Positions 243 to 14,846 of a stretch of DNA of 14,846 nucleotides are shown piece after piece. A program made the translations under genes and the position numbers. The stretch is from the IMG/VR virus record IMGVR_UViG_2703718772_000005. One strand, given 5' to 3'. This DNA comes from a virus (lineage: Duplodnaviria > Heunggongvirae > Uroviricota > Caudoviricetes). A model generated the notes under the pieces. It saw nothing but the letters and a program-made list of their open reading frames with translations. It had not been told where the DNA came from and did no database searches. Within the stretch, counting starts at the first letter, position 1. Every line of letters begins with the position of its first letter.

Positions 243-271
243 AGTATATGGCTTTTAATCCAGTTTTGCAA
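243..271 (-). promoter_or_regulatory. Candidate sigma70 late promoter (PR'-like), overlapping the Q stop codon
   Basis: On the minus strand: -35 TTGCAA (266-271), 17-nt spacer, -10 TATACT (243-248), A/T-rich upstream. Position immediately 3' of a Q-like gene and 5' of an intrinsic terminator matches the lambdoid PR'-qut-tR' layout. Confidence 0.45.
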
Positions 272-1028
272 TATTTTGCTGTAAAAATGCTGCCTTTTGT
301 TTTGAACGTGTTCTCGTCACAAGCAATAAAGCATCACTATCAAGCTGTAGAAAAATGTGCTTCATTGCAACCCAGCGTTCAGTAAATGTCTCGGACCAGT
401 TTTTTGTTGTCACTCCCACCAATGATGCCAGTGTCTGGTATTCATAGGCCTCACGCCCTGCAAGTTCGCTCTTCACATCCTGTGCAGCCAGCCAGATTAA
501 CGTCTTCAGGCGATCCAGTGTCTTACCTGCAATTTTTCTGTTACTTAACAAATCTTTAAACTCGCTCCATGCCCATTGCGTTATGGTGACCTGATGCCCC
601 CATCGAACGCTTTCGCTGTAACACCAAAGCAACCATGCTTTCTGATGTTCATCGAGAGACAAAACCGCGCGGCGCCATGAAGAGGTTGAGAATTCAACCG
701 GGCTGACCAAAGCAATGGATGAACCTTTTGCGTACGACTGCTTACCGGAAGTCGGCGTATTATCCAGCGTAATCATCTTGCCAGTTACCACATCCAGAAT
801 GCGCGGCTTCTTTCGTTTGTATGTACCAGTATCAAATTGTGCATGCTCCTGCCAGGCTTCGAGCTGGCCTTTCGTTGCTCCGTTCAAGTCAGCAGTAGCT
901 GCCATAAGTTGCTCACGAACATACTGTAAATATTGGGTATTCATGCAGTAAATCCTTTCTATATTTTGGCATAATTCTTCAACATTCGGTAATCGTTCAA
1001 AACCGAATCGGGGAAACGACATAAGCAC
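255..1028 (-). CDS. Q-like late-gene antiterminator (call mainly positional)
   Basis: 257-codon ORF directly downstream of ninH/rusA in the nin operon orientation, followed by a promoter plus terminator pair. I do not recognise which Q family it belongs to. Start is uncertain: track start is GTG at 1028; in-frame ATG at 1022 and ATG at 944 (AGGA 8 nt upstream) are alternatives. Confidence 0.55.
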   Translation of the reverse strand: MLMSFPRFGFERLPNVEELCQNIERIYCMNTQYLQYVREQLMAATADLNGATKGQLEAWQEHAQFDTGTYKRKKPRILDVVTGKMITLDNTPTSGKQSYAKGSSIALVSPVEFSTSSWRRAVLSLDEHQKAWLLWCYSESVRWGHQVTITQWAWSEFKDLLSNRKIAGKTLDRLKTLIWLAAQDVKSELAGREAYEYQTLASLVGVTTKNWSETFTERWVAMKHIFLQLDSDALLLVTRTRSKQKAAFLQQNIAKLD

Positions 1029-1135
1029 ACGAGCCCCCAGCGACAGCGAAGGAGTTCTGATATATAAGACTCAGACATCATTCATTCCCCGGTTCTCCAA
1101 TATCTGTTTCACTCATCATCCATAACTACCTGTAA

Positions 1136-1420
1136 TTGCCCCCCCCTTTTTTTGTAACAGTTCTTATATTGCTATATAGAATAGCCATTACTAATGCTTT
1201 TAAATTTAATAAAATAAAAATTATAAAAAACATAAAACACCACGCAAACACACTTAATAAAAACACCGTTACATTAAAAGATAATAAAAACCGCAATAAA
1301 AAACGAATAAATCAATTGTCTCACGCAATTATAAAACATCATATTGATTACGCACCTTGTATTACAAACTCATGTATGTAAAATACGCGCACCATTCAAA
1401 AAAAAGGAAGACAATAACAT
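1136..1420. promoter_or_regulatory. Strongly AT-rich divergent intergenic region between Q and the lpxR-like gene; candidate lpxR promoter
   Basis: Phased A-tracts (repeated aataaaaa-type motifs) suggest curved DNA. Candidate plus-strand promoter: -35 TTGTAT (1357-1362), 16-nt spacer, -10 TAAAAT (1379-1384); SD AAGGAAG about 10 nt before ATG 1421. The 81-aa ORF 1136..1381 is K/N-rich low complexity and probably not coding. Confidence 0.3.
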
Positions 1421-2380
1421 ATGAAAAAAAGTGTCATCGCTGGCGTCTTTATTGCTCTGTCATTTACCACGTGTTCAGCTATCGCGAACAGCCTTGCATT
1501 ATCATTAGCAAATGATGATGCAGGGAAGTTTCAACCAATACTTAATGATATTTATGGCAATAAACATGAAAACAGAGATGATTACTCACAAGGCTTATTT
1601 CTGGGATATAGCCACGATATCTCAGACTCGAGCCAATTATCTCTCCATATTGCGCAAGATATTTACTCTCCATCAGGCAGTAATAAAAGACACAACACAG
1701 CTGTAACTGGAGACAGAGCTTTTAGTGCATACACTCACACTGGTATTGAATGGAACTCCCTTGCGAATGACTGGATTCGCTATCGATTAGGTACTGACAT
1801 AGGTGTTGTTGGCCCCGACGCAGGCGGTCAGAAAGTACAAAATAAAGCTCATGAGATTATTGGGGCAGAAAAATATCATGCATGGGATGATCAAATAGAG
1901 AATCGCTACGGTTATACTGTAAAAGGGATGCTATCCATGACACCAAGTATGGATATTTTAGGTGCTAATGTTGGATTATACCCTGAAGTTTCTGCTGTTA
2001 CTGGAAACTTATTTCAATATGTAGCATATGGCGCAACCATTGCCATTGGTAATGATAAAACCTTCAATTCGGATAATGGCTTTGGTCTGCTGGCTCCCCG
2101 TGGTTTAATGCATATGTCCGATACAAGCGGATTCAAATACAAGATTTTTGCAGGTATGGAAAGACGAGATGTCAATCGCAACTATACTCTCGAAGGAAAA
2201 ACAATACAGACGAAACAAACAACAGTATCGCTAAACAAAACTGTTGATGAATATCAAGTTGGCGCAACAATTGGGTATGCACCTGTAGCCTTCACACTAG
2301 CATTTAATAAAGTAACATCAGAATTCAAGACAGGGGATGACTATTCATTTATAAATGGAGCAATCACCTTCTTTTTTTAA
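1421..2380 (+). CDS. lpxR: Outer-membrane beta-barrel, LpxR-family lipid A 3'-O-deacylase-like (prophage cargo gene)
   Basis: 319 aa, same length as Salmonella LpxR as I recall it. N-terminal signal peptide with AIA cleavage motif; C-terminal Phe (ITFFF) typical of OM barrels. If cleaved after Ala22, mature positions 9, 10, 34, 122 are N, D, S, H, matching my recollection of the reported LpxR active-site residues N9, D10, T34, H122. AT-rich and on the opposite strand to flanking phage genes. Confidence 0.7.
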   Translation: MKKSVIAGVFIALSFTTCSAIANSLALSLANDDAGKFQPILNDIYGNKHENRDDYSQGLFLGYSHDISDSSQLSLHIAQDIYSPSGSNKRHNTAVTGDRAFSAYTHTGIEWNSLANDWIRYRLGTDIGVVGPDAGGQKVQNKAHEIIGAEKYHAWDDQIENRYGYTVKGMLSMTPSMDILGANVGLYPEVSAVTGNLFQYVAYGATIAIGNDKTFNSDNGFGLLAPRGLMHMSDTSGFKYKIFAGMERRDVNRNYTLEGKTIQTKQTTVSLNKTVDEYQVGATIGYAPVAFTLAFNKVTSEFKTGDDYSFINGAITFFF

Positions 2381-2427
2381 CTGAATTGAATTCAATCAAA
2401 ATAACATAAGTCCAACAAAAACATAAA

Positions 2428-2462
2428 GTGCGAAATGAATGCCAGCTCCATTTATTTCGCAC
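2428..2462. terminator. Long hairpin between convergent lpxR and ninH; terminator-like, mainly for the minus strand
   Basis: GTGCGAAATGAATG / CATTTATTTCGCAC arms (14 bp, one G-U) around a 7-nt loop. On the minus strand it is followed by a U-rich tract (UUUAUGUUUUUGUUGG); on the plus strand by an A-rich tract, so weaker there. Confidence 0.5.
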
Positions 2463-2591
2463 TATAAAAGATTAAAAGTTGCAATAAAATAATAAAATGA
2501 CTCAGTTACGAAAACCAATAAACTGTGGCCAGTAGTGAGTCGCTCATCATCGGGCTTTTTGGCGAATGAAATTTAGCTACGCTTTCGAGTC

Positions 2592-2780
2592 TCATCGTCT
2601 TCCCCTCTTGCCCTGTTTGACCATCAGGACGCCGTTAACTATTACATGACGCTCGCCTTTGCTGTCTCGGTTGTACTTGAGCACTGTTCCTCTTGCGCAG
2701 GAAAGCATCCTCGCCACTTCGGTCTGATTGCCTCGTGTCTGGATAAGAAGCTCTGGTATCGTTTGAATTGTGGCGTTCAT
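2592..2780 (-). CDS. ninH: NinH-like protein
   Basis: 62 aa, resembles lambda NinH (IPxxL...GNQTEVAR...RGTV.KY motif). ATG overlaps the rusA stop as ATGA. Confidence 0.75.
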   Translation of the reverse strand: MNATIQTIPELLIQTRGNQTEVARMLSCARGTVLKYNRDSKGERHVIVNGVLMVKQGKRGRR

Positions 2781-3139
2781 GCGTTCTCCAGTTCGGTGAT
2801 TTTTATTCCAAGCCGTCCGCCTGGTACTTTCACACCACGAATTATGCGAATGTCATCGAATTGCTCGTCGTCTTCCGCAAATCCGGCATGGATAAGGGAG
2901 TCGAGTAAACCCTTCAGGATGTTATCTAGGTCGCGGCGGCGGGAGTCTGGAACGTCTGCGATTACTTTGATGCGGAGTCGTGATTTGGTGAAAATATCTA
3001 ACTTGAGTTGGTGGATGATTTGCTGAACGTCTTTTCGGTATTTCTGGCCTTTATCGCTGATGTAGTATTGGCTTCCCCGTCTTCGCCAGTAGGTATTCAC
3101 CGACGGCGGGTATGGAAGCACAAACTGATATTCGTTCAT
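2777..3139 (-). CDS. rusA: Holliday junction resolvase RusA
   Basis: 120 aa, clear similarity to E. coli RusA (LPxPPSxNxYxR, DRRRRDLDN, GGRL motifs). Start overlaps the ybcO stop. Confidence 0.9.
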   Translation of the reverse strand: MNEYQFVLPYPPSVNTYWRRRGSQYYISDKGQKYRKDVQQIIHQLKLDIFTKSRLRIKVIADVPDSRRRDLDNILKGLLDSLIHAGFAEDDEQFDDIRIIRGVKVPGGRLGIKITELENA

Positions 3140-3426
3140 GACTTAATCTTCCCCTCCTTCAGCAGTATCGCCTGCGTCCTGATCACGCCTTCGAGGTGGT
3201 AAAGTCTGGCGTCTTTGTTGTCGAGAATCCTTGTGCGTCGGTCGATCTCCGCGTGGCAGTCACTACAAGCCCATGCGCCGATCAGGTCGTCAGGCTTCAT
3301 CCCCGTTCCACAAATTCCAGCCATCCGGTAATGTGCCAGAACTGTAGTTTCAGGATTGCCATTGCATACGCCGTAAATACGTACCTGGCATTCTCTGCCG
3401 CGCGCTTCTTTGCGTAGGTTAGCCAT
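3136..3426 (-). CDS. ybcO: YbcO-like putative nuclease (DUF1364)
   Basis: 96 aa, strong resemblance to DLP12 YbcO (RGRECQVRI.GVCNGNPET.VLAH, CSxCHxEIDRRT). SD GGGAAGG upstream of the ATG. Confidence 0.8.
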   Translation of the reverse strand: MANLRKEARGRECQVRIYGVCNGNPETTVLAHYRMAGICGTGMKPDDLIGAWACSDCHAEIDRRTRILDNKDARLYHLEGVIRTQAILLKEGKIKS

Positions 3427-3631
3427 TTACCTTCCCTCGCAATTGAAGAATTGACTGAAGGTCTTTTTTAATAAATATGCGAGTGCGAATTGAGCAGTAG
3501 TTTTCCTTCATTCTGGCGTAGTAATAGTCCTTTCTTTGCTTAAGTTTGTTGGCATCCGCTGTCATCCAGTCTTTTACAGCAAACTTAATTAGCCAGCGGT
3601 GGCAGAGATACCATTTCAGGTAATCACTCAT
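3419..3631 (-). CDS. Hypothetical nin-region protein (70 aa), occupies the position of ninG in lambda
   Basis: ORF whose ATG lies 5 nt before the ninF stop (8-nt overlap) and whose stop overlaps the ybcO start. Basic, W/Y-rich; no family recognised. Confidence 0.45.
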   Translation of the reverse strand: MSDYLKWYLCHRWLIKFAVKDWMTADANKLKQRKDYYYARMKENYCSIRTRIFIKKDLQSILQLRGKVNG

Positions 3632-3800
3632 CGTCTTCTTCCTCGTACATTGAGCTATTCGGATCGCTCATCAGTTCTGCACAGCAGTGCTCACACACGT
3701 GAACTTCCAGCACATGCAGCTTCTGACCGCAGTTAGCGCACGTTAAAGCTCGCTCGACGCTTTCTTTCTGGTATTGAAGGGATTGGGATGGGCTAAGCAT
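3624..3800 (-). CDS. ninF: NinF-like small zinc-ribbon protein (58 aa, below the ORF-track cutoff)
   Basis: Hand translation gives [58 protein letters not shown], which matches lambda NinF as I recall it. Two Cys pairs (CxxC ... CxxCC) and an acidic tail. ATG overlaps the stop of the upstream gene. Confidence 0.8.
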   Translation of the reverse strand: MLSPSQSLQYQKESVERALTCANCGQKLHVLEVHVCEHCCAELMSDPNSSMYEEEDDE

Positions 3801-4165
3801 TATTGGATTCTCTGCATCATGAGAAAGACAATCATGGCGGCGCGAAGGGGATTTTCATGTATAGCTCGCTTAGATTTACAGTAGGCCACACCGCGTGCAC
3901 CCCACTCGTCTTCATCGAGATTGATAATGCTAATCCTGTATTTTTCAATAATCGGCCATGAGTCTGCTGGGTTTGCGCATGGGTTAAAGGATCCGCGCTC
4001 AACTTCTACTTCAACTGCGTCTCCGTTTACAATGTCTCCCTCAAATGAGACAAACACCATATCGCCATTCTCACCTTCTTTGTAATCCGGCGATCCGTTA
4101 TGAATGGCTTCGAATACCGCCACGTTAATTTCAAAATCACTTAACTGTGAATAATCCATTGTCAT
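3800..4165 (-). CDS. Hypothetical nin-region protein (NinX-like position), about 121 aa
   Basis: Track ORF 3800..4201 begins at GTG. The ATG at 4163-4165 forms an ATGA overlap with the ninE stop, consistent with the coupling pattern of the operon; ATG at 4157-4159 is an alternative. Acidic protein, family not recognised with certainty. Confidence 0.55.
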
Positions 4166-4338
4166 TTCCTCGCACGATGTCTTAGCCACCGGATATCCCA
4201 CAGGTGAGCCGTGTAGTTGAAGGTTTTTACGTCAGATTCTTTTGGGATTGGCTTGCGTTTATTTCTGGAGCGTTTCGTTGGAAGGTATTTGCAGTTTTCG
4301 CAGATGATGTCGGTGATACTTCGTCGCTGTCGTCTCAT
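4162..4338 (-). CDS. ninE: NinE-like protein (58 aa, below the ORF-track cutoff)
   Basis: Hand translation gives [61 protein letters not shown] overlaps the ninB stop (ATGA) and its stop overlaps the next start (ATGA). Confidence 0.8.
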
Positions 4339-4745
4339 TCGTACCTCCTGTCGGTAAATCTGACACCATGACCAATAGCCCAGGCTGTTGTGTACTCGAT
4401 AAGACTTGCCATACGCTTCACACTCATCTGCGCGCTGCTTTCGCGAATGTTGACGTATTCGCCTTCAAGCCCGGGAAAAACATCAGCTTCCTGTTTTGTT
4501 GCCACTGCATGACCGCTGATCAACAAAACCTTCCATTGTTCTGGTTTTAACCATTTGCCGCACCATTGAACCTGACGAGCGATATCCGCCAGCATCGCGT
4601 GAAATTTTGCGTTCTGGTCAAGGTTGCGCTTGTAGTCAGTAATGCGGATGGTGACTGGCTTGTCTTTATCGAGTGGTGTTGCGAGGATGGCATTTATTGC
4701 AGCTTGCTGTTGTTGCTTAGTTCGGAGGAAGATTGTTTGCTTCAT
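4335..4745 (-). CDS. ninB: NinB (Orf-family recombination mediator)
   Basis: 136 aa, similar to lambda NinB (N-terminal MK..., LDQN, W.GKWL motifs as recalled). First recognisable nin gene of the operon. Confidence 0.85.
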
Positions 4746-5079
4746 CGAAATTCTTCTCTTTAATTCCAGCGGCTCTGATAGCTTTCATTACTGCAATTAC
4801 CGTTTTGTCTCTCCCATCCTCATAACCCATCGCATAAGCACCTTCTTCACCATCTTTCCAAAAGTCGTCATTCGATTCGGGCCAGTCAATATCCAGTTCA
4901 ATAGCTGCTCGCGATGCCTGCCACGTTTGCCAGTGGCCTTGAACATCGTCCATCACGTATTGACCACCAATATCACCACTGCCAATTTCATGGTGATTTT
5001 CAGGGTAACGGATAAGGTCTGAGGATTCGCCTCCACGTCGCAACCAACTTTCTTCAAACTGCTTTCTTGATTCGTCCAT
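4717..5079 (-). CDS. Hypothetical acidic W-rich protein (120 aa)
   Basis: ORF with SD GAGGG about 10 nt upstream of ATG 5079; its 3' end overlaps the ninB start by 29 nt. No family recognised. Confidence 0.5.
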   Translation of the reverse strand: MDESRKQFEESWLRRGGESSDLIRYPENHHEIGSGDIGGQYVMDDVQGHWQTWQASRAAIELDIDWPESNDDFWKDGEEGAYAMGYEDGRDKTVIAVMKAIRAAGIKEKNFDEANNLPPN

Positions 5080-5096
5080 CGATACTTACCCTCAGT

Positions 5097-5303
5097 TCAA
5101 CTCACAAAACTCCACGCCATTTTTGCTACAGCGACAGGCATAACACCGATAATCACCCACAGGAAAATGCTACCGAAAAGCACACCCACCAGGTCTTTAC
5201 CTTCGCCTACCAACCGGACAAAACTGCTGGCAACAACAATGAACGTCGCCACCATCCACATAGCACCGAGAATCCTCAATGCAGAGAAAATTAACTCAGC
5301 CAC
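5097..5303 (-). CDS. Small hydrophobic protein, two predicted transmembrane segments (68 aa)
   Basis: GTG start with a very strong SD (GGGGGAGGG, 6-nt spacing). Two about 25-residue hydrophobic stretches separated by a short EGKD loop. Lies directly downstream of an intrinsic terminator. Confidence 0.4.
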   Translation of the reverse strand: MAELIFSALRILGAMWMVATFIVVASSFVRLVGEGKDLVGVLFGSIFLWVIIGVMPVAVAKMAWSFVS

Positions 5304-5318
5304 GATTTACCCTCCCCC

Positions 5319-5350
5319 AAATAAAAAGGCCTGCGATTACCAGCAGGCCT
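5319..5350 (-). terminator. Intrinsic terminator between the 96-aa and 68-aa genes
   Basis: Minus-strand RNA AGGCCUGC-UGGUAAUC-GCAGGCCU (8-bp GC-rich stem) followed by UUUUAUUU; 26 nt downstream of the 96-aa gene stop. Confidence 0.55.
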
Positions 5351-5375
5351 GTTATTAGCTCAGTGATGTAGATGG

Positions 5376-5666
5376 TCATTGCCTTACCTCCATAAGCGCC
5401 CTATTAATAAACGCCGTCATTGGATTTGCACATCCCCACCCCGTACCATCTGGATTTCTTTTAATTGGCTCCTTCTTCACTTTGCGTTTTGCATAAATAA
5501 CCGTCTTCCACTTACGCTCAACAACACTCAAATGTCCTTGTTTCACCATATGCCTTGCTGCTTGAGCGATTCTGTTATTTGGTATTCCGGTGATCAGTGC
5601 TAATTCATGTGGGGAGAATTGTTCATGAGTTTTCAGATATTCCAGGATGATTTCTTTTCCAGTCAC
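5376..5666 (-). CDS. Hypothetical DNA-binding protein (possible winged helix), 96 aa
   Basis: GTG start with SD AGGAG 7 nt upstream and an in-frame stop 4 codons upstream. Central segment (ELALITGIPNNRIAQAARHMVKQGHL) looks like a helix-turn-helix; basic C-terminal half. First gene on the minus strand after the rearrangement junction. Confidence 0.55.
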   Translation of the reverse strand: MTGKEIILEYLKTHEQFSPHELALITGIPNNRIAQAARHMVKQGHLSVVERKWKTVIYAKRKVKKEPIKRNPDGTGWGCANPMTAFINRALMEVRQ

Positions 5667-5694
5667 GATCTGCTCCTGTAACTATCCCATGTAA

Positions 5695-6288
5695 ACGCAT
5701 CTGAAACTGCAGACTGCGCAGGATTCAGACAATGGATTTTCGGCGCTTGAACAGGCGCTGCTGCGGTATATCGCCGCCGGTCTTGGCGTTTCCTACGAAC
5801 AGTTGTCCCGGGATTACTCGAAGGTCAGTTATTCAAGTGCCCGCGCCTCCGCCAATGAGTCGTGGCGCTATTTTATGGGACGACGAAAATTTATTGCGTC
5901 CCGGCTGGCCACGCAGATGTTTTCCTGCTGGCTGGAAGAGGCACTTCTTCGGGGGATTATTCGTCCGCCACGGGCGCGTTTTGATTTTTATCAGGCGCGA
6001 TCAGCCTGGTCACGGGCTGAGTGGATTGGAGCCGGAAGAATGGCCATTGACGGGCTCAAGGAAGTCCAGGAATCAGTGATGCGCATTGAGGCCGGACTGA
6101 GCACGTATGAGAAAGAGCTGGCGCTGATGGGCGAGGATTATCAGGACATTTTCCGCCAGCAGGTCAGGGAATCTGCTGAGCGACAAAAAGCCGGACTCTC
6201 ACGTCCGGTGTGGATAGCGCAGGCGTATGAGCAGCAGATAGCGGAGAGTCGCAGGCCGGAAGAGGAGACAACACCACGTGAGACGTAA
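5695..6288 (+). pseudogene. B: Portal protein B, 5'-truncated remnant (C-terminal about 195 codons only)
   Basis: Open frame from stop at 5692-5694 to 6288, no ATG before the TTG at 5803. Sits immediately upstream of and overlapping gene C, as the portal gene does in lambda; about 1 kb of expected upstream coding is replaced by minus-strand nin-module genes. Confidence 0.7.
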
Positions 6289-7783
6289 TCTTTCACACAT
6301 TATTGCCGCAGCATTCAATGAACCGCTGCTTCTGGAGCCCGCCTATGCGCGGGTTTTCTTTTGCGCGCTCGGGCGCGAGATGGGGGCATCAAGTCTTTCG
6401 GTACCACAACAGCAGGTACAGTTTGATGCTCCCGGAATGCTGGCTGAAACGGACGAGTACATGGCCGGAGGTAAACGACCGGCCCGTGTTTACCGGGTGG
6501 TGAACGGTATTGCTGTACTGCCGGTGACCGGCACGCTGGTGCACCGGCTGGGGGGTATGCGGCCATTTTCCGGAATGACAGGCTATGACGGCATTGTCGC
6601 CTGTCTTCAGCAGGCAATGGCGGATAGCCAGGTGCGGGGCGTACTGCTGGACATTGACAGTCCGGGCGGGCAGGCCGCCGGCGCGTTTGACTGCGCTGAC
6701 ATGATTTACCGCCTCCGTCAGCAGAAGCCGGTCTGGGCACTGTGCAATGACACGGCCTGCTCTGCAGCCATGCTGCTGGCGTCGGCCTGCTCCCGACGGC
6801 TGGTTACCCAGACATCCCGTATCGGCTCCATTGGCGTGATGATGAGCCATGTCAGCTATGCCGGTCATCTGGCGCAGGCCGGTGTTGATATCACGCTGAT
6901 TTACTCAGGGGCGCACAAGGTGGATGGCAATCAGTTTGAAGCGTTGCCGGCAGAGGTTCGCCAGGACATGCAACAGCGCATTGATGCGGCGCGCCGGATG
7001 TTTGCTGAAAAAGTAGCGATGTATACCGGTCTGTCTGTTGATGCTGTCACGGGAACAGAGGCCGCCGTTTTTGAAGGTCAGTCCGGCATTGAGGCCGGGC
7101 TGGCGGATGAATTAATCAATGCGTCGGATGCCATCAGTGTGATGGCCACGGCGCTGAACAGTAATGTCAGAGGAGGCACTATGCCGCAATTAACTGCAAC
7201 GGAAGCCGCCGCGCAGGAGAACCAGCGAGTGATGGGGATCCTGACATGCCAGGAAGCGAAAGGACGTGAACAGCTTGCCACGATGCTGGCAGGACAACAG
7301 GGCATGAGCGTTGAACAGGCCCGGGCGATTCTGGCCGCGGCGGCACCACAGCAGCCGGTGGCATCCGCGCAGAGTGAAGCCGATCGCATTATGGCGTGTG
7401 AAGAAGCGAAAGGTCGTGAACAACTGGCGGCAACGCTGGCGGCGATGCCGGAGATGACGGTGGAAAAAGCCCGCCCGATCCTGGCTGCTTCACCGCAGGC
7501 GGATGCCGGACCCTCACTCCGTGATCAGATCATGGCACTGGATGAGGCAAAAGGGGCTGAGGCGCAGGCTGAACAGCTGGCTGCCTGCCCGGGAATGACT
7601 GTGGAGAGCGCCCGGGCTGTGCTGGCTGCGGGATCAGGTAAGGCAGAACCGGTCTCTGCATCCACAACCGCCATGTTTGAACGCATCATGGCGAACCATT
7701 CACCGGCAGCGGTACAGGGTGGCGTGCCACAGACGTCAGCAGACGGTGATGCGGACGTGAAAATGCTCATGGCCATGCCATGA
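6278..7783 (+). CDS. C: Head maturation protease/scaffold protein C (lambda gpC-like)
   Basis: 501 aa. N-terminal two-thirds strongly resemble lambda gpC (FNEPL.LEPAYARVFFCAL, GIAVLPV.GTLV, GMTGY.GI, VWAL.ND, SIGVMM.H, ITLIYSG.HKVDGN). GTG start with SD GAGGAG upstream; overlaps the portal stop. Confidence 0.9.
   Translation: MRRNLSHIIAAAFNEPLLLEPAYARVFFCALGREMGASSLSVPQQQVQFDAPGMLAETDEYMAGGKRPARVYRVVNGIAVLPVTGTLVHRLGGMRPFSGMTGYDGIVACLQQAMADSQVRGVLLDIDSPGGQAAGAFDCADMIYRLRQQKPVWALCNDTACSAAMLLASACSRRLVTQTSRIGSIGVMMSHVSYAGHLAQAGVDITLIYSGAHKVDGNQFEALPAEVRQDMQQRIDAARRMFAEKVAMYTGLSVDAVTGTEAAVFEGQSGIEAGLADELINASDAISVMATALNSNVRGGTMPQLTATEAAAQENQRVMGILTCQEAKGREQLATMLAGQQGMSVEQARAILAAAAPQQPVASAQSEADRIMACEEAKGREQLAATLAAMPEMTVEKARPILAASPQADAGPSLRDQIMALDEAKGAEAQAEQLAACPGMTVESARAVLAAGSGKAEPVSASTTAMFERIMANHSPAAVQGGVPQTSADGDADVKMLMAMP
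7181..7783 (+). CDS. Nu3: Nu3-like scaffolding protein from an internal in-frame start within C
   Basis: In-frame ATG at 7181 preceded by AGGAGG (7171-7176). In lambda the scaffold Nu3 is translated from an internal start in the C frame (established knowledge); the exact start here is inferred. Confidence 0.5.
   Translation: MPQLTATEAAAQENQRVMGILTCQEAKGREQLATMLAGQQGMSVEQARAILAAAAPQQPVASAQSEADRIMACEEAKGREQLAATLAAMPEMTVEKARPILAASPQADAGPSLRDQIMALDEAKGAEAQAEQLAACPGMTVESARAVLAAGSGKAEPVSASTTAMFERIMANHSPAAVQGGVPQTSADGDADVKMLMAMP
7226..7631 (+). repeat. Three diverged tandem repeats (about 36-40 codons each) in the C/Nu3 scaffold domain
   Basis: Protein-level repeats RVMGILTCQEAKGREQLATMLAGQQGMSVEQARAILAAA / RIMACEEAKGREQLAATLAAMPEMTVEKARPILAAS / QIMALDEAKGAEAQAEQLAACPGMTVESARAVLAAG, starting near 7226, 7381 and 7523. 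DNA copies are diverged, so the duplications are old. Confidence 0.7.
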
Positions 7784-7819
7784 AGCCAGTGCTGACCATC
7801 AACAGGAGGTTTTTACAAT

Positions 7820-8167
7820 ATGGTGACGAAAACTATCACTGAACAGCGTGCGGAAATACGTATTTTTGCCGGTAATGATCCGGCTCATACCGCCACAGGC
7901 AGCAGCGGGATTTCCTCGGCAACACCGGCACTGACGCCCCTGATGCTGGATGAGGCCACCGGGAAACTGGTGGTCTGGGACGGACAAAAAGCCGGTAGTG
8001 CGGTTGGCATACTGGTACTGCCGCTTGAAGGCACAGAGACGGCGCTGACCTATTACAAGTCGGGGACCTTTGCGACGGAGGCAATCCGCTGGCCTGAAAG
8101 TGTGGATGAACACAAAAAGGCCAACGCCTTTGCCGGCAGTGCCCTGAGTCACGCGGCGCTGCCGTAA
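7820..8167 (+). CDS. D: Head decoration protein D (gpD-like)
   Basis: 115 aa, similar to lambda gpD (DPAHTAT, TPLMLD, KLV.WDG, AVGIL, YYKSGTF, TEAIRWPE, AFAG). SD AGGAGG upstream. Confidence 0.9.
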   Translation: MVTKTITEQRAEIRIFAGNDPAHTATGSSGISSATPALTPLMLDEATGKLVVWDGQKAGSAVGILVLPLEGTETALTYYKSGTFATEAIRWPESVDEHKKANAFAGSALSHAALP

Positions 8168-8175
8168 CACGTTAT

Positions 8176-8195
8176 CAGGCCACCGCGGTGGCCTG
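8176..8195 (+). other. Perfect GC-rich palindrome in the D-E intergenic region
   Basis: CAGGCCACC-GC-GGTGGCCTG followed by ACUGAUUUCUGAAUG; possible attenuator or RNA-stability hairpin. The U tract is weak for a terminator. Confidence 0.3.
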
Positions 8196-8224
8196 ACTGA
8201 TTTCTGAATGAAAGGAACTGATTT

Positions 8225-9253
8225 ATGGGATTGTTTACGACCCGCCAGTTACTCGGTTATACCGAACAAAAAGTGAAATTTCGTGCGCTGTTTCTGGAGC
8301 TGTTTTTCCGCCGTACGGTGAATTTCCATACCGAAGAGGTGATGCTGGACAAAATTACCGGAAAAACGCCGGTGGCGGCCTATGTTTCCCCGGTTGTTGA
8401 AGGAAAAGTGCTGCGTCATCGTGGTGGTGAAACCCGCGTGTTACGTCCGGGCTACGTCAAGCCGAAACACGAATTTAATTACCAGCAGGCGGTTGAGCGT
8501 CTTCCCGGTGAAGATCCGGCTCAGCTGAACGACCCGGCCTACCGTCGTCTGCGTATCATCACTGATAACCTCAAACAGGAAGAGCACGCCATTGTCCAGG
8601 TGGAAGAAATGCAGGCGGTGAATGCCGTGCTGTATGGCAAATACACGATGGAAGGAGACCAGTTCGAGAAAATTGAGGTCGATTTTGGCAGGTCGACGAA
8701 GAATAACATCACTCAGGGTAGTGGTAAGGAGTGGTCAAAACAGGATCGTGACACGTTCGATCCTACACATGATCTTGACCTCTACTGCGACCAGGCCAGC
8801 GGTCTTGTGAATATTGCCATTATGGACGGTACCGTCTGGCGTCTGCTGAATGGCTTTAAATTGTTCCGCGAAAAACTGGATACCCGTCGCGGCTCTAATT
8901 CGCAACTCGAAACAGCGGTGAAAGACCTGGGCGCGGTGGTGTCCTTCAAAGGGTATTACGGCGATCTGGCCATTGTGGTGGCAAAAACGTCTTATGTGGC
9001 AGAGGACGGTACCGAAAAACGTTATCTGCCTGAGGGCTCGCTGGTCCTGGGGAATACGGCAGCAGAGGGCATTCGTTGCTATGGTGCCATTCAGGATGCG
9101 CAGGCGTTGTCCGAAGGTGTGGTGGCCTCTTCCCGTTATCCGAAACACTGGCTGACGGTAGGGGATCCCGCCCGTGAATTTACCATGACGCAGTCCGCGC
9201 CGCTGATGGTGTTGCCGGACCCGGATGAGTTTGTGGTGGTACAGGTGAAATAA
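8225..9253 (+). CDS. E: Major capsid protein E (gpE-like)
   Basis: 342 aa, extensive similarity to lambda gpE along its length (YVSP.V.G, PGYVKPKHE, DPAYRR.RII, VEEMQAV.AVL.GKYTM, NNITQ, TRRGSNS.LETAVKDLG, YPK.W.T.GDPAREFTM.QSAPLM, DPDEFV.VQ). SD AAGGAA upstream. Confidence 0.95.
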   Translation: MGLFTTRQLLGYTEQKVKFRALFLELFFRRTVNFHTEEVMLDKITGKTPVAAYVSPVVEGKVLRHRGGETRVLRPGYVKPKHEFNYQQAVERLPGEDPAQLNDPAYRRLRIITDNLKQEEHAIVQVEEMQAVNAVLYGKYTMEGDQFEKIEVDFGRSTKNNITQGSGKEWSKQDRDTFDPTHDLDLYCDQASGLVNIAIMDGTVWRLLNGFKLFREKLDTRRGSNSQLETAVKDLGAVVSFKGYYGDLAIVVAKTSYVAEDGTEKRYLPEGSLVLGNTAAEGIRCYGAIQDAQALSEGVVASSRYPKHWLTVGDPAREFTMTQSAPLMVLPDPDEFVVVQVK

Positions 9254-9260
9254 TCCGTGA

Positions 9261-9290
9261 GCGGGGGCGAAATGCCCCCGTGTCTTTTTT
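9261..9290 (+). terminator. Intrinsic terminator/attenuator just after the major capsid gene
   Basis: CGGGGGC-GAAAU-GCCCCCG hairpin followed by UGUCUUUUUU, immediately 3' of the E stop and 5' of the FI RBS. Confidence 0.55.
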
Positions 9291-9304
9291 CACAGGGGGA
9301 TGAT

Positions 9305-9679
9305 ATGGCAACGAAAGAGCAAAATCTGAAACGGCTTGATGAACTGGCCCTGATTCTGGGGCGTGAGCCGGATATATCCGGGAGTGCCGCAGAGATAGCG
9401 CAGCGGGTGGCAGAATGGGAAGAGGAAATGCAGTCATCCGGCGATGATGTACAGGTTATGAATATGGATATCCGGGAGAGGGAAAACGCGGCTCATGATG
9501 TTCGTGAGGAAACATCCGGCGCGTTAACGCGCATCAGAGTTCTGACCTGCCTCCATCTCTGTGGCGTTGATGGTGAAACGGGGGAATCCGTTGAGCTTGC
9601 GGATGTTGGTCGGGTGATTCTGATTATGTCCTCAGATGCAAAAACACACGTTGATGGTGGAATGGCTGTTTATGCGTGA
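9305..9679 (+). CDS. FI: DNA-packaging protein FI (gpFI-like)
   Basis: ATG at 9305 with SD AGGGGGA upstream. The track ORF starts earlier (9257) but that region contains the terminator hairpin. Position between E and FII; acidic protein; similarity to lambda FI is weak. Confidence 0.7.
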   Translation: MATKEQNLKRLDELALILGREPDISGSAAEIAQRVAEWEEEMQSSGDDVQVMNMDIRERENAAHDVREETSGALTRIRVLTCLHLCGVDGETGESVELADVGRVILIMSSDAKTHVDGGMAVYA

Positions 9680-10025
9680 TTTTCAGAATGCCTTTGATGC
9701 CGCCCTTGCCGGGGTGGACAGTACGATTGTTGAAGTGATGGGCATCAGTGCGCAGTTCACCTCCGGTGCACAGCGTGGCGGCGAAGTTCAGGGGGTTTTT
9801 GACGATCCGGAGTCGCTGGGGTTTGCCAGTAGTGGGATCCGTATTGAAGGAAGCAGCCCGTCATTATTTGTGCGGACGGATACGGTTCGTGCCGTGCGGC
9901 GTGGTGACACGTTGACCATTAATGGTGAGACGTTCTGGGTGGATCGTGTTTCTCCGGATGACGGGGGCAGTTGTTATCTCTGGCTGAACCGTGGGCAACC
10001 ACCCGCAGTTAACCGGCGACGATAA
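9672..10025 (+). CDS. FII: Head-tail joining protein FII (gpFII-like)
   Basis: Starting at ATG 9672 gives 117 aa, strongly similar to lambda gpFII (F.NAFDAA, RGVFDDPE, VRVEGSSPSLFVRTD.VR..RRGDTLTI, FWVDRVSPDDGGSC.LWL.RG.PPAVNRRR). Overlaps the FI stop by 8 nt. Confidence 0.85.
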   Translation: MRDFQNAFDAALAGVDSTIVEVMGISAQFTSGAQRGGEVQGVFDDPESLGFASSGIRIEGSSPSLFVRTDTVRAVRRGDTLTINGETFWVDRVSPDDGGSCYLWLNRGQPPAVNRRR

Positions 10026-10039
10026 ACGCAGGGTGAATT

Positions 10040-10615
10040 ATGGCGATAAAAGGGCTTGATCAGGCGATTGAAAATCTGAGCCGGGTTCGTAAAAACGCCA
10101 TTCCGTCGGCTTCAGCAATGGCTATTAACCGCGTGGCTACAACGGCGATTAATCAGTCTTCATCACAGGTTGCCCGGGAGACCAGGGTGAGCCGGAAACT
10201 GGTAAAGGAACGGTCCAGACTGAAACGGGCGACGGTCAGAAATCCGAATGCCAGAATTATCGTTAACCGCGGTGATCTCCCTGCTATTAAGCTGGGGATC
10301 AGGATGCTTGGTCATCGTCCGAACAGCATACTTAAAGCCGGTCAGCATCGTTATCAGCGGGCATTCATCCAGCGATTAAATAATGGGCGCTGGCATGTTA
10401 TGCAACGTTTGCCAGAAGCCCGGTATGCGAAGGGCAATGACGATAAAGGAAGGAAAAAGCGTAATCGTCTTCCCATTCAGGTGGTTAAAATTCCGATGGC
10501 GGCCCCACTGAAGCAGGCTTTTGATGAGAACGTTAACCGTATCCGGCGAGAACGTCTGCCAAAAGAACTGGGCTATGCGTTGAAACAACAACTAAGGATT
10601 GTGATAAAGCGATGA
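10040..10615 (+). CDS. Z: Tail completion protein Z (gpZ-like)
   Basis: 191 aa, resembles lambda gpZ (MAIKGLD.AI.NL start as recalled); canonical position after FII; stop overlaps the U start (ATGA). Confidence 0.85.
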   Translation: MAIKGLDQAIENLSRVRKNAIPSASAMAINRVATTAINQSSSQVARETRVSRKLVKERSRLKRATVRNPNARIIVNRGDLPAIKLGIRMLGHRPNSILKAGQHRYQRAFIQRLNNGRWHVMQRLPEARYAKGNDDKGRKKRNRLPIQVVKIPMAAPLKQAFDENVNRIRRERLPKELGYALKQQLRIVIKR

Positions 10616-11007
10616 AACATACTGATATCCGTGCTGCAGTGCTGGATGCACTCGAGCAGCATGAACACGGGGCGACGCTGTTTGATGGTCGCCCCGCTGT
10701 TTTTGATGAGGCGGATTTTCCGGCAATTGCTGTTTATCTCACCGGCGCTGAATACACGGGCGAAGCGCTGGACAGCGATACCTGGCAGGCGGAGCTGCAT
10801 ATTGAAGTTTTCCTGCCTGCTCAGGTGCCGGATTCAGAGCTGGATTCGTGGATGGAAAGCCGGATTTATCCGGCGATGAGTGCGATCCCGGCACTGTCAG
10901 GCCTGATTACCACGATGGTTACGCAGGGCTATGAGTATCGTCGTGATGACGATATGGCGTTATGGAGTTCTGCTGATTTGACTTATTCCATTACATACGA
11001 GATGTGA
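10612..11007 (+). CDS. U: Tail terminator protein U (gpU-like)
   Basis: 131 aa, the same length as lambda gpU; canonical position between Z and V. Confidence 0.85.
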
Positions 11008-11014
11008 GGACGAT

Positions 11015-11767
11015 ATGCCAACACCAAATCCTCTGGCACCGGTAAAAGGTGCCGGTACCACCCTGTGGGTTTATAACGGTCAGGGTGATGCCTATGCAAA
11101 CCCGTTGTCAGACGATAACTGGCAGCGACTGGCACAGGTAAAGGATCTGACGCCGGGCGAGATGACGGCAGAACCCTACGATGATAACTACCTGGATGAT
11201 GAAGACGCGGACTGGACTGCGACCGGGCAGGGGCAGAAGTCTGCAGGAGATACCAGTTTTACGCTGGCCTGGAAACCGGGAGAAGAAGGTCAGAAAGGGC
11301 TTATAGGCTGGTTTGAAAGCGGGGATGTGCGGGCCTATAAAATCCGTTTCCCGAACGGCACGGTGGATGTGTTCCGTGGCTGGGTCAGCAGTATCGGTAA
11401 GGCCGTAACGGCGAAGGAAGTGATCACCCGTACGGTGAAAGTGACCAACGTGGGTAAACCTTCTGTGGCGGAAGAACGCAGCGAAATTACGCCGGTCAGT
11501 GCGATTAAGGTGACGCCGACATCCGGTACGGTGGCAAAAGGGAAAACAACCACCCTGACGGTTTCTTTTGAGCCGGAAAGTGCAACAGACAAGACGTTCA
11601 GAGCGGTTTCCGCCGATCCGTCGAAAGCCACCATTAGTGTGAAAGATATGACAATTACGGTAAACGGCGTGGCGACAGGTAAGGTGCAGATCCCTGTGGT
11701 GAGCGGAAATGGTCAGTTCGCCGCAGTGGCTGAAGTCACCGTTACTGAAGCGGGCGCTGCAGGGTAA
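11015..11767 (+). CDS. V: Major tail tube protein V (gpV-like) with C-terminal Ig-like domain
   Basis: 250 aa, strong similarity to lambda gpV ([103 protein letters not shown]); C-terminal T/V-rich segment typical of the Ig-like domain. Confidence 0.95.
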
Positions 11768-11780
11768 ACGGAGGTAATAC

Positions 11781-12212
11781 ATGTTTCTGAAAACCGAACA
11801 ATTTGAATATAACGGTGTGTCCGTCACGCTTTCCGAGCTGTCTGCGCTGCAGCGTATCGAGCATCTTGCCCTGCTGAAACGACGGGCAGAACAGGCTGAA
11901 GCCAGCGGTAACCTGCAGGTGAGCGTGGAAGACCTTGTCAGAACCGGCGCGTTTCTGGTGGCGATGTCCCTGTGGCATAACCATCCACAGAAAACGGAGT
12001 CACCGTCAATGAATGAGGCCGTGATGAAGATAGAGCAGGAAGTGCTCACCACCTGGCCTGCCGATGCCATTGCCCGGGCGGAAGACGTGGTGTTGTGCCT
12101 GTCCGGGATGATCGAAGCTGTTCGTCCGGATACTGATATTACTGAAGTGGCGAAAAATAACACGCTGACTGATGATGATTTTTCTGCGGGAAAGTCTTCG
12201 ACGGCGAGCTGA
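11781..12212 (+). CDS. G: Tail assembly chaperone G (gpG-like)
   Basis: 143 aa, strong similarity to lambda gpG (MFLKTE.FE.NGV.VTLSELSALQRIEHLAL.KR.AEQAE..., AFLVAMSLWHNHPQKT). SD GGAGG upstream. Confidence 0.9.
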   Translation: MFLKTEQFEYNGVSVTLSELSALQRIEHLALLKRRAEQAEASGNLQVSVEDLVRTGAFLVAMSLWHNHPQKTESPSMNEAVMKIEQEVLTTWPADAIARAEDVVLCLSGMIEAVRPDTDITEVAKNNTLTDDDFSAGKSSTAS

Positions 12213-12652
12213 ACTTTGCCCTCAGACTGGCGCGTGAGATGGGGAGACCCGACTGGCGCGCCATGCTTGCCGGGATGACATCCACCGAATATGCCGACTG
12301 GCACCGTTTTTACCGCACGCATTATTTTCAGGATACCCAGCTGGATATGCATTTTTCCGGGCTGACGTACGCTGTACTCAGCCTGTTTTTTTGCGATCCG
12401 GATATGCATCCCTCTGATTTCAGTCTGCTTGTCCCCCGGCATGAGGAAGAGCAGGTGGAGAGGCCGGATGAGGACAAAATGCTGATGCAGAAAGCGGCAG
12501 GACTTGCCGGAGGCGTCCGGTTCGGTGGGGACGGAGGGCGCGATATTTTATCGTCTGCGGATGTGGCGGATGTCATGGTGGATGATGCCGCATTAATGAT
12601 GGCTTCAGCGGGGATTTCCGGAGGTGTGAGATATGTCCCAGCCGGTTGGTGA
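11781..12652 (+). CDS. T: G-T fusion chaperone made by programmed -1 ribosomal frameshift (gpGT-like)
   Basis: Slippery heptamer G GGA AAG at 12188-12194 in the G frame, 6 codons before the G stop. The -1 frame is open from there to the TGA at 12650-12652 (track ORF 12239..12652 is the distal part). Matches the lambda G/GT arrangement. Confidence 0.8.
12188..12194 (+). other. Programmed -1 frameshift slippery site GGGAAAG
   Basis: Heptamer read directly; in-frame as G GGA AAG in gene G. Confidence 0.8.
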
Positions 12653-14846
12653 TCTTGTTATTGACCTTAGTCTGGATGCGGTCCGTTTCGATGAGCAGAT
12701 GAGCCGGGTAAGGCGTCATTTTTCAGGTCTGGATACCGACGCCAGAAAAACCGCCAGTGCTGTTGAACAGGGCCTGAGCCGCCAGGCGCTGGCTGCACAA
12801 AAAGCCGGGATTTCCGTCGGGCAGTATAAAGCGGCCATGCGAACCCTGCCCGCACAGTTTACGGATATCGCCACGCAGCTTGCCGGTGGTCAGAATCCCT
12901 GGCTGATCCTGCTGCAACAGGGCGGTCAGGTGAAGGACTCCTTCGGCGGGATGATCCCCATGTTCAGGGGGCTTGCCGGTGCGATCACCCTGCCGATGGT
13001 CGGGGTCACCTCGCTGGCGGTGGCGACAGGTGCGCTGGCGTACGCCTGGTACCAGGGGGATTCCACGCTTTCAGCGTTTAATAAAACCCTGGTTCTTTCC
13101 GGTAATCAGTCCGGACTGACTGCCGATCGTATGCTGACTCTCTCAAGAGCCGGGCAGGCAGCAGGGCTGACGTTTAACCAGGCGAGAGAGTCACTGGCAG
13201 CCCTGGTGAATGCCGGTGTGCGTGGTGGTGAACAGTTTGATGCCATCAACCAGAGTGTCGCGCGTTTTGCGTCTGCATCCGGTGTGGAGGTGGATAAAGT
13301 CGCTGAAGCCTTCGGGAAGCTGACCACTGACCCGACGTCGGGACTGATGGCGATGGCGCGCCAGTTCCGTAACGTGACGGCAGAGCAGATTGCGTATGTT
13401 GCACAGCTGCAGCGTTCCGGAGACGAGGCCGGGGCATTGCAGGCGGCGAACGATATCGCCACGAAAGGCTTTGATGAGCAGACCCGTCGCCTGAAAGAAA
13501 ACATGGGAACACTGGAGACCTGGGCGGATAAAACAGGGAAGGCATTCAAATCGATGTGGGATGCCATTCTGGATATCGGTCGTCCGGAATCCTCAGCGGA
13601 TATGCTCGCCAGTGCGCAGAAGGCATTTGATGAGGCGGATAAAAAATGGCAGTGGTACCAGAGTCGGAGCCAGCGCCGCGGTAAAACCTCCTCTTTCCGG
13701 GCCAACCTTCAGGGCGCATGGAATGACCGGGAAAATGCCCGTCTGGGGCTGGCAGCGGCCACGCTGCAGTCGGATATGGAAAAAGCCGGTGAACTGGCCG
13801 CCAGGGACCGGGCCGAACGGGACGCATCACAGCTGAAGTATACCGGAGAGGCGCAGAAGGCGTATGAGCGTCTGCTGACGCCGCTGGAGAAATATACCGC
13901 CCGTCAGGAAGAACTGAATAAGGCCCTGAAAGACGGGAAAATCCTGCAGGCGGATTACAACACGCTGATGGCGGCGGCGAAAAAGGATTATGAATCGACG
14001 CTGAAAAAGCCGAAGTCGTCAGGAGTCAAAGTGTCAGCCGGTGAGCGTCAGGAAGACCAGGCGCATGCTGCCCTGCTGGCGCTTGAAACCGAGCTCCGGA
14101 CGCTGGAAAAACACAGCGGTGCGAATGGGAAAATCAGCCAGCAGCGTCGCGATTTATGGAAGGCGGAAAGTCAGTATGCGGTCCTGAAAGAGGCTGCCAC
14201 GAAACGACAGTTATCTGAGCAGGAAAAATCCCTGCTGGCGCATAAAGACGAGACGCTGGAGTACAAACGCCAGCTGGCTGAGCTGGGCGACAAGGTTGAA
14301 TACCAGAAACGCCTGAATGAGCTGGCACAGCAGGCTGCGCGGTTTGAGCAGCAGCAGGGCGCGAAGCAGGCGGCAATCAGTGCCCAGGCGCGGGGCCTCA
14401 CCGACCGTCAGGTGCAGCGGGAGTCGGAAGAGCAGCGCCTTCGTGACGTGTACGGTGATAATCCGGATGCGCTGGCGAAGGCCACATCTGCACTGAAGAA
14501 CACCTGGTCTGCGGAGGAGCAGCTTCGTGGAAGCTGGATGGCCGGTCTGAAGTCCGGCTGGGGCGAGTGGGCAGAAAGTGCGACGGACAGTTTTTCGCAG
14601 GTTAAAAGCGCGGCCACGCAGACCTTTGACGGTATTGCACAGAATATGGCGGCGATGCTGACCGGTGCAGAGGCAGACTGGCGGGGATTCACCCGTTCGG
14701 TGCTGTCCATGATGACAGAAATCCTGCTTAAACAGGCCATGGTGGGCATTGTCGGGCGTATCGGCAGCGCCATTGGCGGTGCTTTCGGTGGTGGTGCATC
14801 TGCTTCCTCGGGGACGGCCATTGAGGCTGCGGCGGCGAACTTCCAT
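12633..14846 (+). CDS. H: Tail tape measure protein H (gpH-like), 3' end beyond the window
   Basis: ATG 12633 with SD GGAGGTG; open in frame for 738 codons to the window edge. N-terminus resembles lambda gpH (VGDLV.DLSLDA.RFDEQM.RVRRHFSG, AGISVGQYKAAMR.LPAQFTD.ATQLAGGQ.PWLILLQQGGQ); overlaps the T stop. Confidence 0.9.
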   Translation, partial: MSQPVGDLVIDLSLDAVRFDEQMSRVRRHFSGLDTDARKTASAVEQGLSRQALAAQKAGISVGQYKAAMRTLPAQFTDIATQLAGGQNPWLILLQQGGQVKDSFGGMIPMFRGLAGAITLPMVGVTSLAVATGALAYAWYQGDSTLSAFNKTLVLSGNQSGLTADRMLTLSRAGQAAGLTFNQARESLAALVNAGVRGGEQFDAINQSVARFASASGVEVDKVAEAFGKLTTDPTSGLMAMARQFRNVTAEQIAYVAQLQRSGDEAGALQAANDIATKGFDEQTRRLKENMGTLETWADKTGKAFKSMWDAILDIGRPESSADMLASAQKAFDEADKKWQWYQSRSQRRGKTSSFRANLQGAWNDRENARLGLAAATLQSDMEKAGELAARDRAERDASQLKYTGEAQKAYERLLTPLEKYTARQEELNKALKDGKILQADYNTLMAAAKKDYESTLKKPKSSGVKVSAGERQEDQAHAALLALETELRTLEKHSGANGKISQQRRDLWKAESQYAVLKEAATKRQLSEQEKSLLAHKDETLEYKRQLAELGDKVEYQKRLNELAQQAARFEQQQGAKQAAISAQARGLTDRQVQRESEEQRLRDVYGDNPDALAKATSALKNTWSAEEQLRGSWMAGLKSGWGEWAESATDSFSQVKSAATQTFDGIAQNMAAMLTGAEADWRGFTRSVLSMMTEILLKQAMVGIVGRIGSAIGGAFGGGASASSGTAIEAAAANFH

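Follow-up and report, generated by a model that had tools for sequence, protein, structure and literature searches.

Head-to-head fusion of an inverted nin-Q block to a truncated portal gene in a defective lambdoid prophage of E. coli O111, a probable product of IS1203/IS629-driven decay

The DNA analyzed here (the window) was the whole 14,846-nt stretch of IMG/VR record IMGVR_UViG_2703718772_000005. The six-frame ORF list and the sequence showed minus-strand genes up to position 5666 and plus-strand genes from about position 5700. A head-to-head junction of the nin/Q genes with the portal gene had been predicted at 5660–5810 from the letters alone; this arrangement was confirmed, and with slightly corrected coordinates the breakpoint was placed inside that interval, at 5699/5700 (1-nt ambiguity at 5699). 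At the joint, an inverted ren-nin-Q block together with the last 12 codons of a dnaC-like gene (minus strand) was fused to a portal gene from codon 336 (plus strand). The features are listed in Table 1.

Table 1. Features of the window on both sides of the joint at 5699/5700.
Feature	Position	Strand	Basis
Q antiterminator, complete, distal end of the inverted early-right block	255..944	-	Pfam Phage_antiter_Q (E=1e-91); RefSeq annotation of identical 11128 sequence
lpxR (lipid A deacylase) moron, between the Q remnant and complete Q/ylcG	1421..2380	+	Pfam LpxR (E=7e-40); annotation; AT-rich
Q remnant, 72 nt	2524-2595	-	Annotation of 11128
nin region: ninH, rusA, ybcO/DUF1364, hypothetical, ninF, ninX, ninE, ninB, two hypotheticals	2592..5303	-	Annotation of identical sequence; Pfam NinB, RusA, YbcO, NinX
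Terminator-like hairpin downstream of the ren-like gene	5327..5350	-	Terminator scan
ren-like gene, first of the inverted block, adjoining the junction	5376..5666	-	99% identical to mEpX1 'Ren-like exclusion protein' region
DnaC-like helicase-loader 3' remnant (12 codons and stop)	5663..5699	-	Alignment to mEpX1 gp47; homology ends at 5699
Portal (gpB-like) remnant, codons 336-530 and stop	5700..6288	+	100% nt identity to intact portal genes; Pfam Phage_portal_2 positions 293-354/354
Head protease/scaffold (C/Nu3-like, S49 peptidase), intact	6278..7783	+	Pfam Peptidase_S49
Intact head-tail genes D, E, FI, FII, Z, U, V, G, T	7820..12652	+	Annotation; Pfam Phage_cap_E, Phage_TAC_2, Phage_tail_T
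Tape-measure gene H, running off the window end	12633..14846	+	Annotation of identical 11128 sequence

On the left side, the ren-like gene gave no Pfam hit. Alignment to mEpX1 showed that the 3' end of the dnaC-like gene overlapped the ren-like start; the replication genes were cut down to 37 nt at the joint, and the remaining replication module was deleted. The segment at 5667–5694, which had been read as a junction of about 30 bp, was thus no spacer but part of the dnaC-like 3' end. The terminator-like hairpin was strong and was followed by a T-run, and we take its position to be that of lambda tR2 in the nin region. Across window positions 1001–2600, the Q remnant was followed by lpxR (plus strand) and by the complete Q with ylcG (255–1081, minus strand). 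Within the late-regulatory region, the location of lpxR between two Q genes constitutes a module-exchange scar.

On the right side, the sequence from 5700 agreed at every position (100% identity) with the 3'-terminal 590 nt of the gene for the intact 530-aa portal WP_000827572.1 of strain O103 RM8385. The remnant kept 195 of 530 residues (37%), in agreement with the predicted C-terminal third, and only the last 62 profile positions of Phage_portal_2 were matched. The portal frame opened at 5695, but 5695–5699 was not portal-derived; the first start codon of the remnant itself was a TTG at 5803. The look-up of the 161-aa portal-remnant ORF gave no record. The protein of the following head protease/scaffold gene (WP_001254039.1) was identical in the intact prophages compared. 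From the portal, present as a remnant only, through the S49 protease/scaffold, the decoration protein, gpE, FI/FII and Z-U-V-G-T-H, the lambda-family genes stood in lambda order, and the slippery heptamer GGGAAAG of the lambda G/GT -1 frameshift site was conserved at the end of G (12188–12194). The early-right block, which in lambdoid phages lies downstream of replication with nin-Q co-oriented with the lysis and head genes, was inverted here. The element is therefore a rearranged lambdoid derivative.

The GC content was 0.465 at 2400–5699 and 0.562 at 5700–14846. The shift in base composition that had been listed with the junction is thus real, but an intact, normally ordered lambdoid prophage showed the same contrast (0.42 vs 0.55); therefore, it is not evidence about the junction or about a foreign origin. 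The contrast is the usual asymmetry of the lambda arms.

BLAST analysis of 5300–6300 revealed a clean split at query position 400, which is window position 5699. Left of the split, lambdoid phages, mEpX1 among them, were matched in their ren/dnaC region (ident 99%); right of it, the matches were to the 3' end of lambda-family portal genes, many EHEC genomes being identical (100%) and phage 21 and lambda-like phages reaching about 98%. The comparison with lambdoid phages and host genomes that had been proposed as a check thus mapped the breakpoint. No phage record spanning both sides of the joint was found in this search, and the sequence from 5700 was confirmed as portal-derived and the portal as incomplete, so that on both points the original prediction held. 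The promoter and terminator scan around the joint found no promoter-like site. The repeat search around it gave chance-level repeats only, with no meaningful inverted repeats and no recombination-site signature. The dnaC and portal flanks had no shared homology and no common k-mer. Microhomology at the joint was 1 nt only; therefore, an end-joining signature was not demonstrable.

Phage mEpX1 (NC_019709), whose 99% identity over ren and the dnaC 3' end defined the left breakpoint, differed from the window in carrying a full O/dnaC replication module upstream in normal orientation. The prophages of O103 RM8385 and O26 RM10386, phage 21 and lambda-like phages had a portal C-terminus and C, FI, FII, Z and U genes that were identical or about 98% identical to those of the window, and these intact lambdoid phages and prophages also shared nin/Q gene families with it. 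In the O103 and O26 prophages, ren-nin-Q-lysis-terminase-W-portal was complete and co-oriented, whereas in the window the early-right block was inverted. Compared with the intact lambdoids, about two-thirds of the portal and the terminase, W, replication and immunity genes were gone. Because the RM8385 prophage occupies a different site and has a different integrase, it was rejected as the unrearranged ancestor and served as an architectural comparator only.

Comparison with E. coli 11128 (NC_013364.1) showed 100% identity left of the joint and 9147/9148 identical positions right of it (one mismatch), and several other O111 genomes scored slightly above 11128. The match to the O111 genomes was full-length but was split by a 1315-bp insertion at 5699/5700. 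In genomes with identical sequence, the element was flanked by ybhC and ybhB/bioA and carried int, a lambda-type tyrosine integrase gene; the att site was outside the window. On this sequence comparison, the window is part of a defective lambdoid prophage that carries effector genes and is integrated at ybhC/att-lambda in EHEC O111:H8/H-.

The 11128 prophage occupied 850.5–887 kb of NC_013364.1. Its order was ybhC, int (-), endolysin R::IS1203 (-), holin (-), nanS-like esterase (-), Q (-), ylcG, lpxR (+), Q remnant, ninH to ninB (-), ren-like (-), IS3-family element (+), portal remnant, C, D, E, FI, FII, Z, U, V, G, T, H, M, L (frameshifted), K, I, J, lom, tail fibre, nleH, cif, espJ, ybhB/bioA. 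Genes nleH, cif and espJ at the right end, outside the window, are T3SS effector genes; cif was frameshifted in 11128 and intact in RM9131 and 110512. The genes of the 11128 prophage followed the same order as those of the window, with the nin-Q block likewise inverted, the portal likewise truncated and the breakpoints the same; the prophage differed at the joint, where it carried an IS1203-type element and six more parental bases, while the window was a direct fusion.

The int and head-tail genes of the element were in normal prophage orientation, and the inverted part was dnaC'-ren-nin-Q-holin-R-Rz'. Two intervals were missing: xis through most of dnaC, and most of Rz through portal codon 335. 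According to the annotation, terminase, W, replication and immunity genes were absent from the whole 11128 element, which also lacked the portal 5' half. The lysis genes, which had also been thought lost, were in part retained: past Q, just outside the window, lay the holin and the IS-split endolysin. At its far end, the inverted block had Rz codon 5 and int codon 5 linked by an 18-nt filler (TGGATGTGGTGCTGGACG, minus strand); this Rz'/int joint was IS-free and lay at about 851.57 kb of NC_013364.1, outside the window. In 11128, the integrase as annotated takes its ATG start from the filler and immediately follows the late lysis operon.

When the joint was queried with 600 nt of flanking sequence on each side, the arrangement ren-dnaC'/IS/portal-C was recovered in 30 complete genomes, and those titled by serotype were O111. 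At the site corresponding to 5699/5700, 11128 and 29 other O111 genomes had AG, a 1309/1310-bp IS1203-type element and ATGA; in 11128 the joint read ...GTAAACGCAAG / TGAACCGCCCC...(1309 bp)...GGGGCGGTTCA / ATGATCTGAAAC... The element had IS1203 terminal repeats (TGAACCGCCCCGG...) and a length near the expected value of about 1310 bp, and it shared 99% identity in 11128 and 100% in 95NR1 with the copy annotated as 'IS3-like element IS1203 family transposase'. No IS1203/IS629 element, a type whose transposase arises through programmed frameshifting, was present in the window itself. The joint element in 11128 was flanked by AAG and ATG, without a 3-bp target-site duplication; therefore, it did not arise by simple insertion alone. 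By contrast, a simple insertion is seen in R, where the copy is flanked by a clean GTC duplication of the single GTC in the intact gene.

On the left, the IS allele kept AG, which continues dnaC (mEpX1 reads GCAAGAG); on the right, it kept ATGA, which continues the portal gene (GGTGATGATCTG). Since AG and ATGA are parental sequence and were absent from the window, the IS-bearing state is ancestral: the element came first and the scar later. Relative to this ancestor, the window lacked the IS3-family element plus 2 nt of its left and 4 nt of its right flank (1 nt ambiguity), and its GCA/TCTG is best read as a later IS-loss scar. A second, independent-looking scar, GCA-TGA-TCTG, was found in four complete genomes (E2855, 2013C-3250, 7-15 45A and 7-58 72A), which had lost AG, the IS and A relative to the IS allele. 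IS loss at this joint therefore does occur.

None of 5,426 complete E. coli genomes contained the exact joint of the window, and this joint was absent from GTDB representative genomes, metagenome contigs and IMG/VR contigs (exact and gapped patterns, up to 12 variable bases). The window is its single source, and the joint may be strain-specific, a minority empty-site molecule or an assembly artefact. Short-read assemblers break at IS copies, yet can thread through a rare excised template. That the IS-less joint is an assembly product or a minority molecule, and the main allele of no strain, is consistent with its absence from every collection searched and with the best complete-genome matches, which equalled the window on each side but carried the IS. 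We consider this unlikely: an analogous IS-less scar (with TGA) occupied the same site in four independent complete genomes, no k-mer common to both sides was available for a false join, and six flanking bases were gone that repeat collapse would not remove.

The junction is very probably the end product of ordinary IS1203/IS629-driven decay of the ybhC-ybhB prophage in O111:H8/H-, through inversion, IS insertion with deletion, and IS loss. First, the early-right/late-regulatory block dnaC-ren-nin-Q-holin-R-Rz' (the int-to-Rz interval) would have been inverted. An IS1203-type element would then have entered the portal gene at codon 334/335, and a deletion on its IRL side, reaching to 35 nt before the dnaC stop, would have produced ren-dnaC'/IS/portal-C without a target-site duplication. 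This deletion would have removed portal-N, W, terminase, cos, the rest of Rz, and the immunity and replication genes. Finally, in the strain of the window, the IS would have been lost with 2 nt on its left and 4 nt on its right, so that unrelated sequences became directly fused. We infer the order of the first two steps; no intermediate with the inversion but without the deletion was found.

For the last step, intact IS1203 transposase copies were present in the relatives, and iee has been reported in O111:H8 (PMC9943667, PMC9397093). According to the same papers and to Kusumoto et al. 2011 as cited there, IEE stimulates IS3-family elements to excise, with flanking deletions ranging from a few nt up to more than 40 kb. 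The decay described there for IS629/IS1203 in EHEC resembles the present locus in the IS3-family element at the joint, the recurrent one-sided deletions and the loss of the IS with a few nucleotides. It differs in that we infer IEE here and in that the scar of the window had only 1 nt of microhomology. IEE-assisted, transposase-dependent excision followed by end-joining would most plausibly account for the scar.

The alleles of related strains bear on how the inversion arose. The Australian strains 95NR1 and 95JB1 had the same Rz'/int far joint, the inverted orientation and an uninterrupted R; they also had the same IS/ATGATC-portal joint (IS of 95NR1: L019, 13002–14311), but the left flank of the IS lay inside ninB, at window position 4390. 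Since these strains are inverted with an intact R, the inverted orientation is older than the IS copy in R, and recombination of the two IS copies that 11128 has today did not produce the inversion. As the cause of the head-to-head arrangement, a flip between these copies was therefore rejected, no second IS being present in 95NR1. In 110512 the same IS abutted the C-terminal part of the tail fibre and the head-tail module was deleted; in E2855 the left IS had deleted into int. The IS-portal joint is the constant anchor, and erosion of the flank on the IRL side has happened repeatedly. In NZ_CP077473.1 (8B) and NZ_CP077442.1 (SF4-1), the IS/portal-C anchor was also seen, with NinE or NinB annotated under the left match.

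A different sequence of events is possible, although we hold it to be doubtful. Inverted IS1203 copies in dnaC and in the portal gene would have recombined and inverted ren through portal-N. Later, illegitimate deletion between codon 5 of int and codon 5 of Rz would have left the 18-nt filler and removed xis to dnaC, one IS copy, and the inverted portal-N to Rz segment. This route directly explains a joint IS without target-site duplication, and the far Rz'/int joint is IS-free with filler, as a simple deletion leaves it. A homologous flip between inverted IS1203 copies moreover occurs at the same locus in RM9131 and RM9975. It requires, however, two insertions, one recombination and one deletion, and neither the predicted intermediate nor the reciprocal portal-N/IS/dnaC joint was found in any genome, whereas the one-sided IS-anchored deletions assumed by the inversion-first route recur at the joint IS.

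The original prediction had left the choice between an inversion and a recombination of two prophage segments, each with deletion. Inversion and deletion agreed with the present comparison, while recombination between two prophages at separate chromosomal sites, within a large inversion or translocation, is very unlikely. Prophage-prophage recombination leading to large inversions is well documented in EHEC (PMC7430833); the lambdoid modules of the present element are mosaic, and the same head module was found in a prophage at another site in O103 and O26. Against this, a chimeric query for the reciprocal junction of portal-N with the rest of dnaC matched 0 of the 5,426 complete genomes, which argues against exchange between two prophages. 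A single prophage, located between ybhC and ybhB, also contained both ends of the inverted block, its int and head-tail genes being in normal orientation, and the flanks had no shared homology. The outline of the prediction was thus supported, but the IS mechanism had been missed.

In RM9131 and RM9975, the block between two inverted IS copies (L016, 3187–4495 and 14066–15375 in RM9131) was flipped, so that ren, nin, Q and holin were on the plus strand, and the whole head-tail module was gone. Both orientations thus exist among O111 genomes, as would be expected of a programmed invertible segment acting as a phase-variable switch of the Q/late-promoter cassette. Such a switch is extremely improbable: the flipped state was found in only two near-identical genomes and one region, the boundaries were 1.3-kb IS copies and not short recombinase sites (the block ends being an IS copy and the filler joint), no invertase gene of the Gin/Hin/Pin type was annotated in or beside the block, and the window, having lost one of the two repeats, cannot flip. 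The flip in RM9131 and RM9975 looks like a rare recombination event and not a switch. The right-hand IS1203 of these genomes met the R fragment by its IRR end, where a simple flip between IS copies predicts the IRL end; therefore, this state needs at least one extra transposase-level event.

It is highly improbable that, in O111 strains with both inverted IS1203 copies, the Q/late-promoter cassette is reversible and that flipping and 'locking' by IS excision modulate effector expression under SOS/Q control. If this were so, one orientation would direct late transcription towards int/ybhC, and that of the RM9131 type towards the tail-fibre remnant and nleH-cif.

The junction is an ordinary, essentially already described outcome of prophage decay driven by IS elements, in a pathogen lineage that has been sequenced. 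Beyond bookkeeping, its importance is small: the IS-loss scar adds one more state to the IS1203/IS629-driven decay of the O111 effector prophage. The allele series at the joint is a natural record of IS-anchored deletion and excision, and with its IS-present state, two scars, one-sided deletions and flipped block it could serve as a marker for strain typing or lineage. A clean, apparently 'illegitimate' fusion can mask an IS-mediated origin, which only comparison with relatives shows.

Since portal residues 1–335, terminase, W, cos, and the replication and immunity modules were lacking, the element should be unable to replicate, package DNA or form particles on its own. This bears out the predicted structural module that cannot package DNA; packaging would need an entire portal, both terminase subunits (small and large), gpW and cos. 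The intact C-to-H genes appear to be uncoupled from the Q-dependent late promoter, which now would point towards int. Prophage-prophage interaction has been described for EHEC defective prophages, and the C-to-H genes may be recombination or complementation material for co-resident lambdoid phages. The T3SS effector cargo may explain why the prophage remnant has been retained.

The tail chaperone genes looked intact although the element is defective. Over V, G and T, a 444-aa antisense ORF (11108–12442, minus strand) gave no Pfam hit; it is probably spurious, lying in GC-skewed coding DNA.
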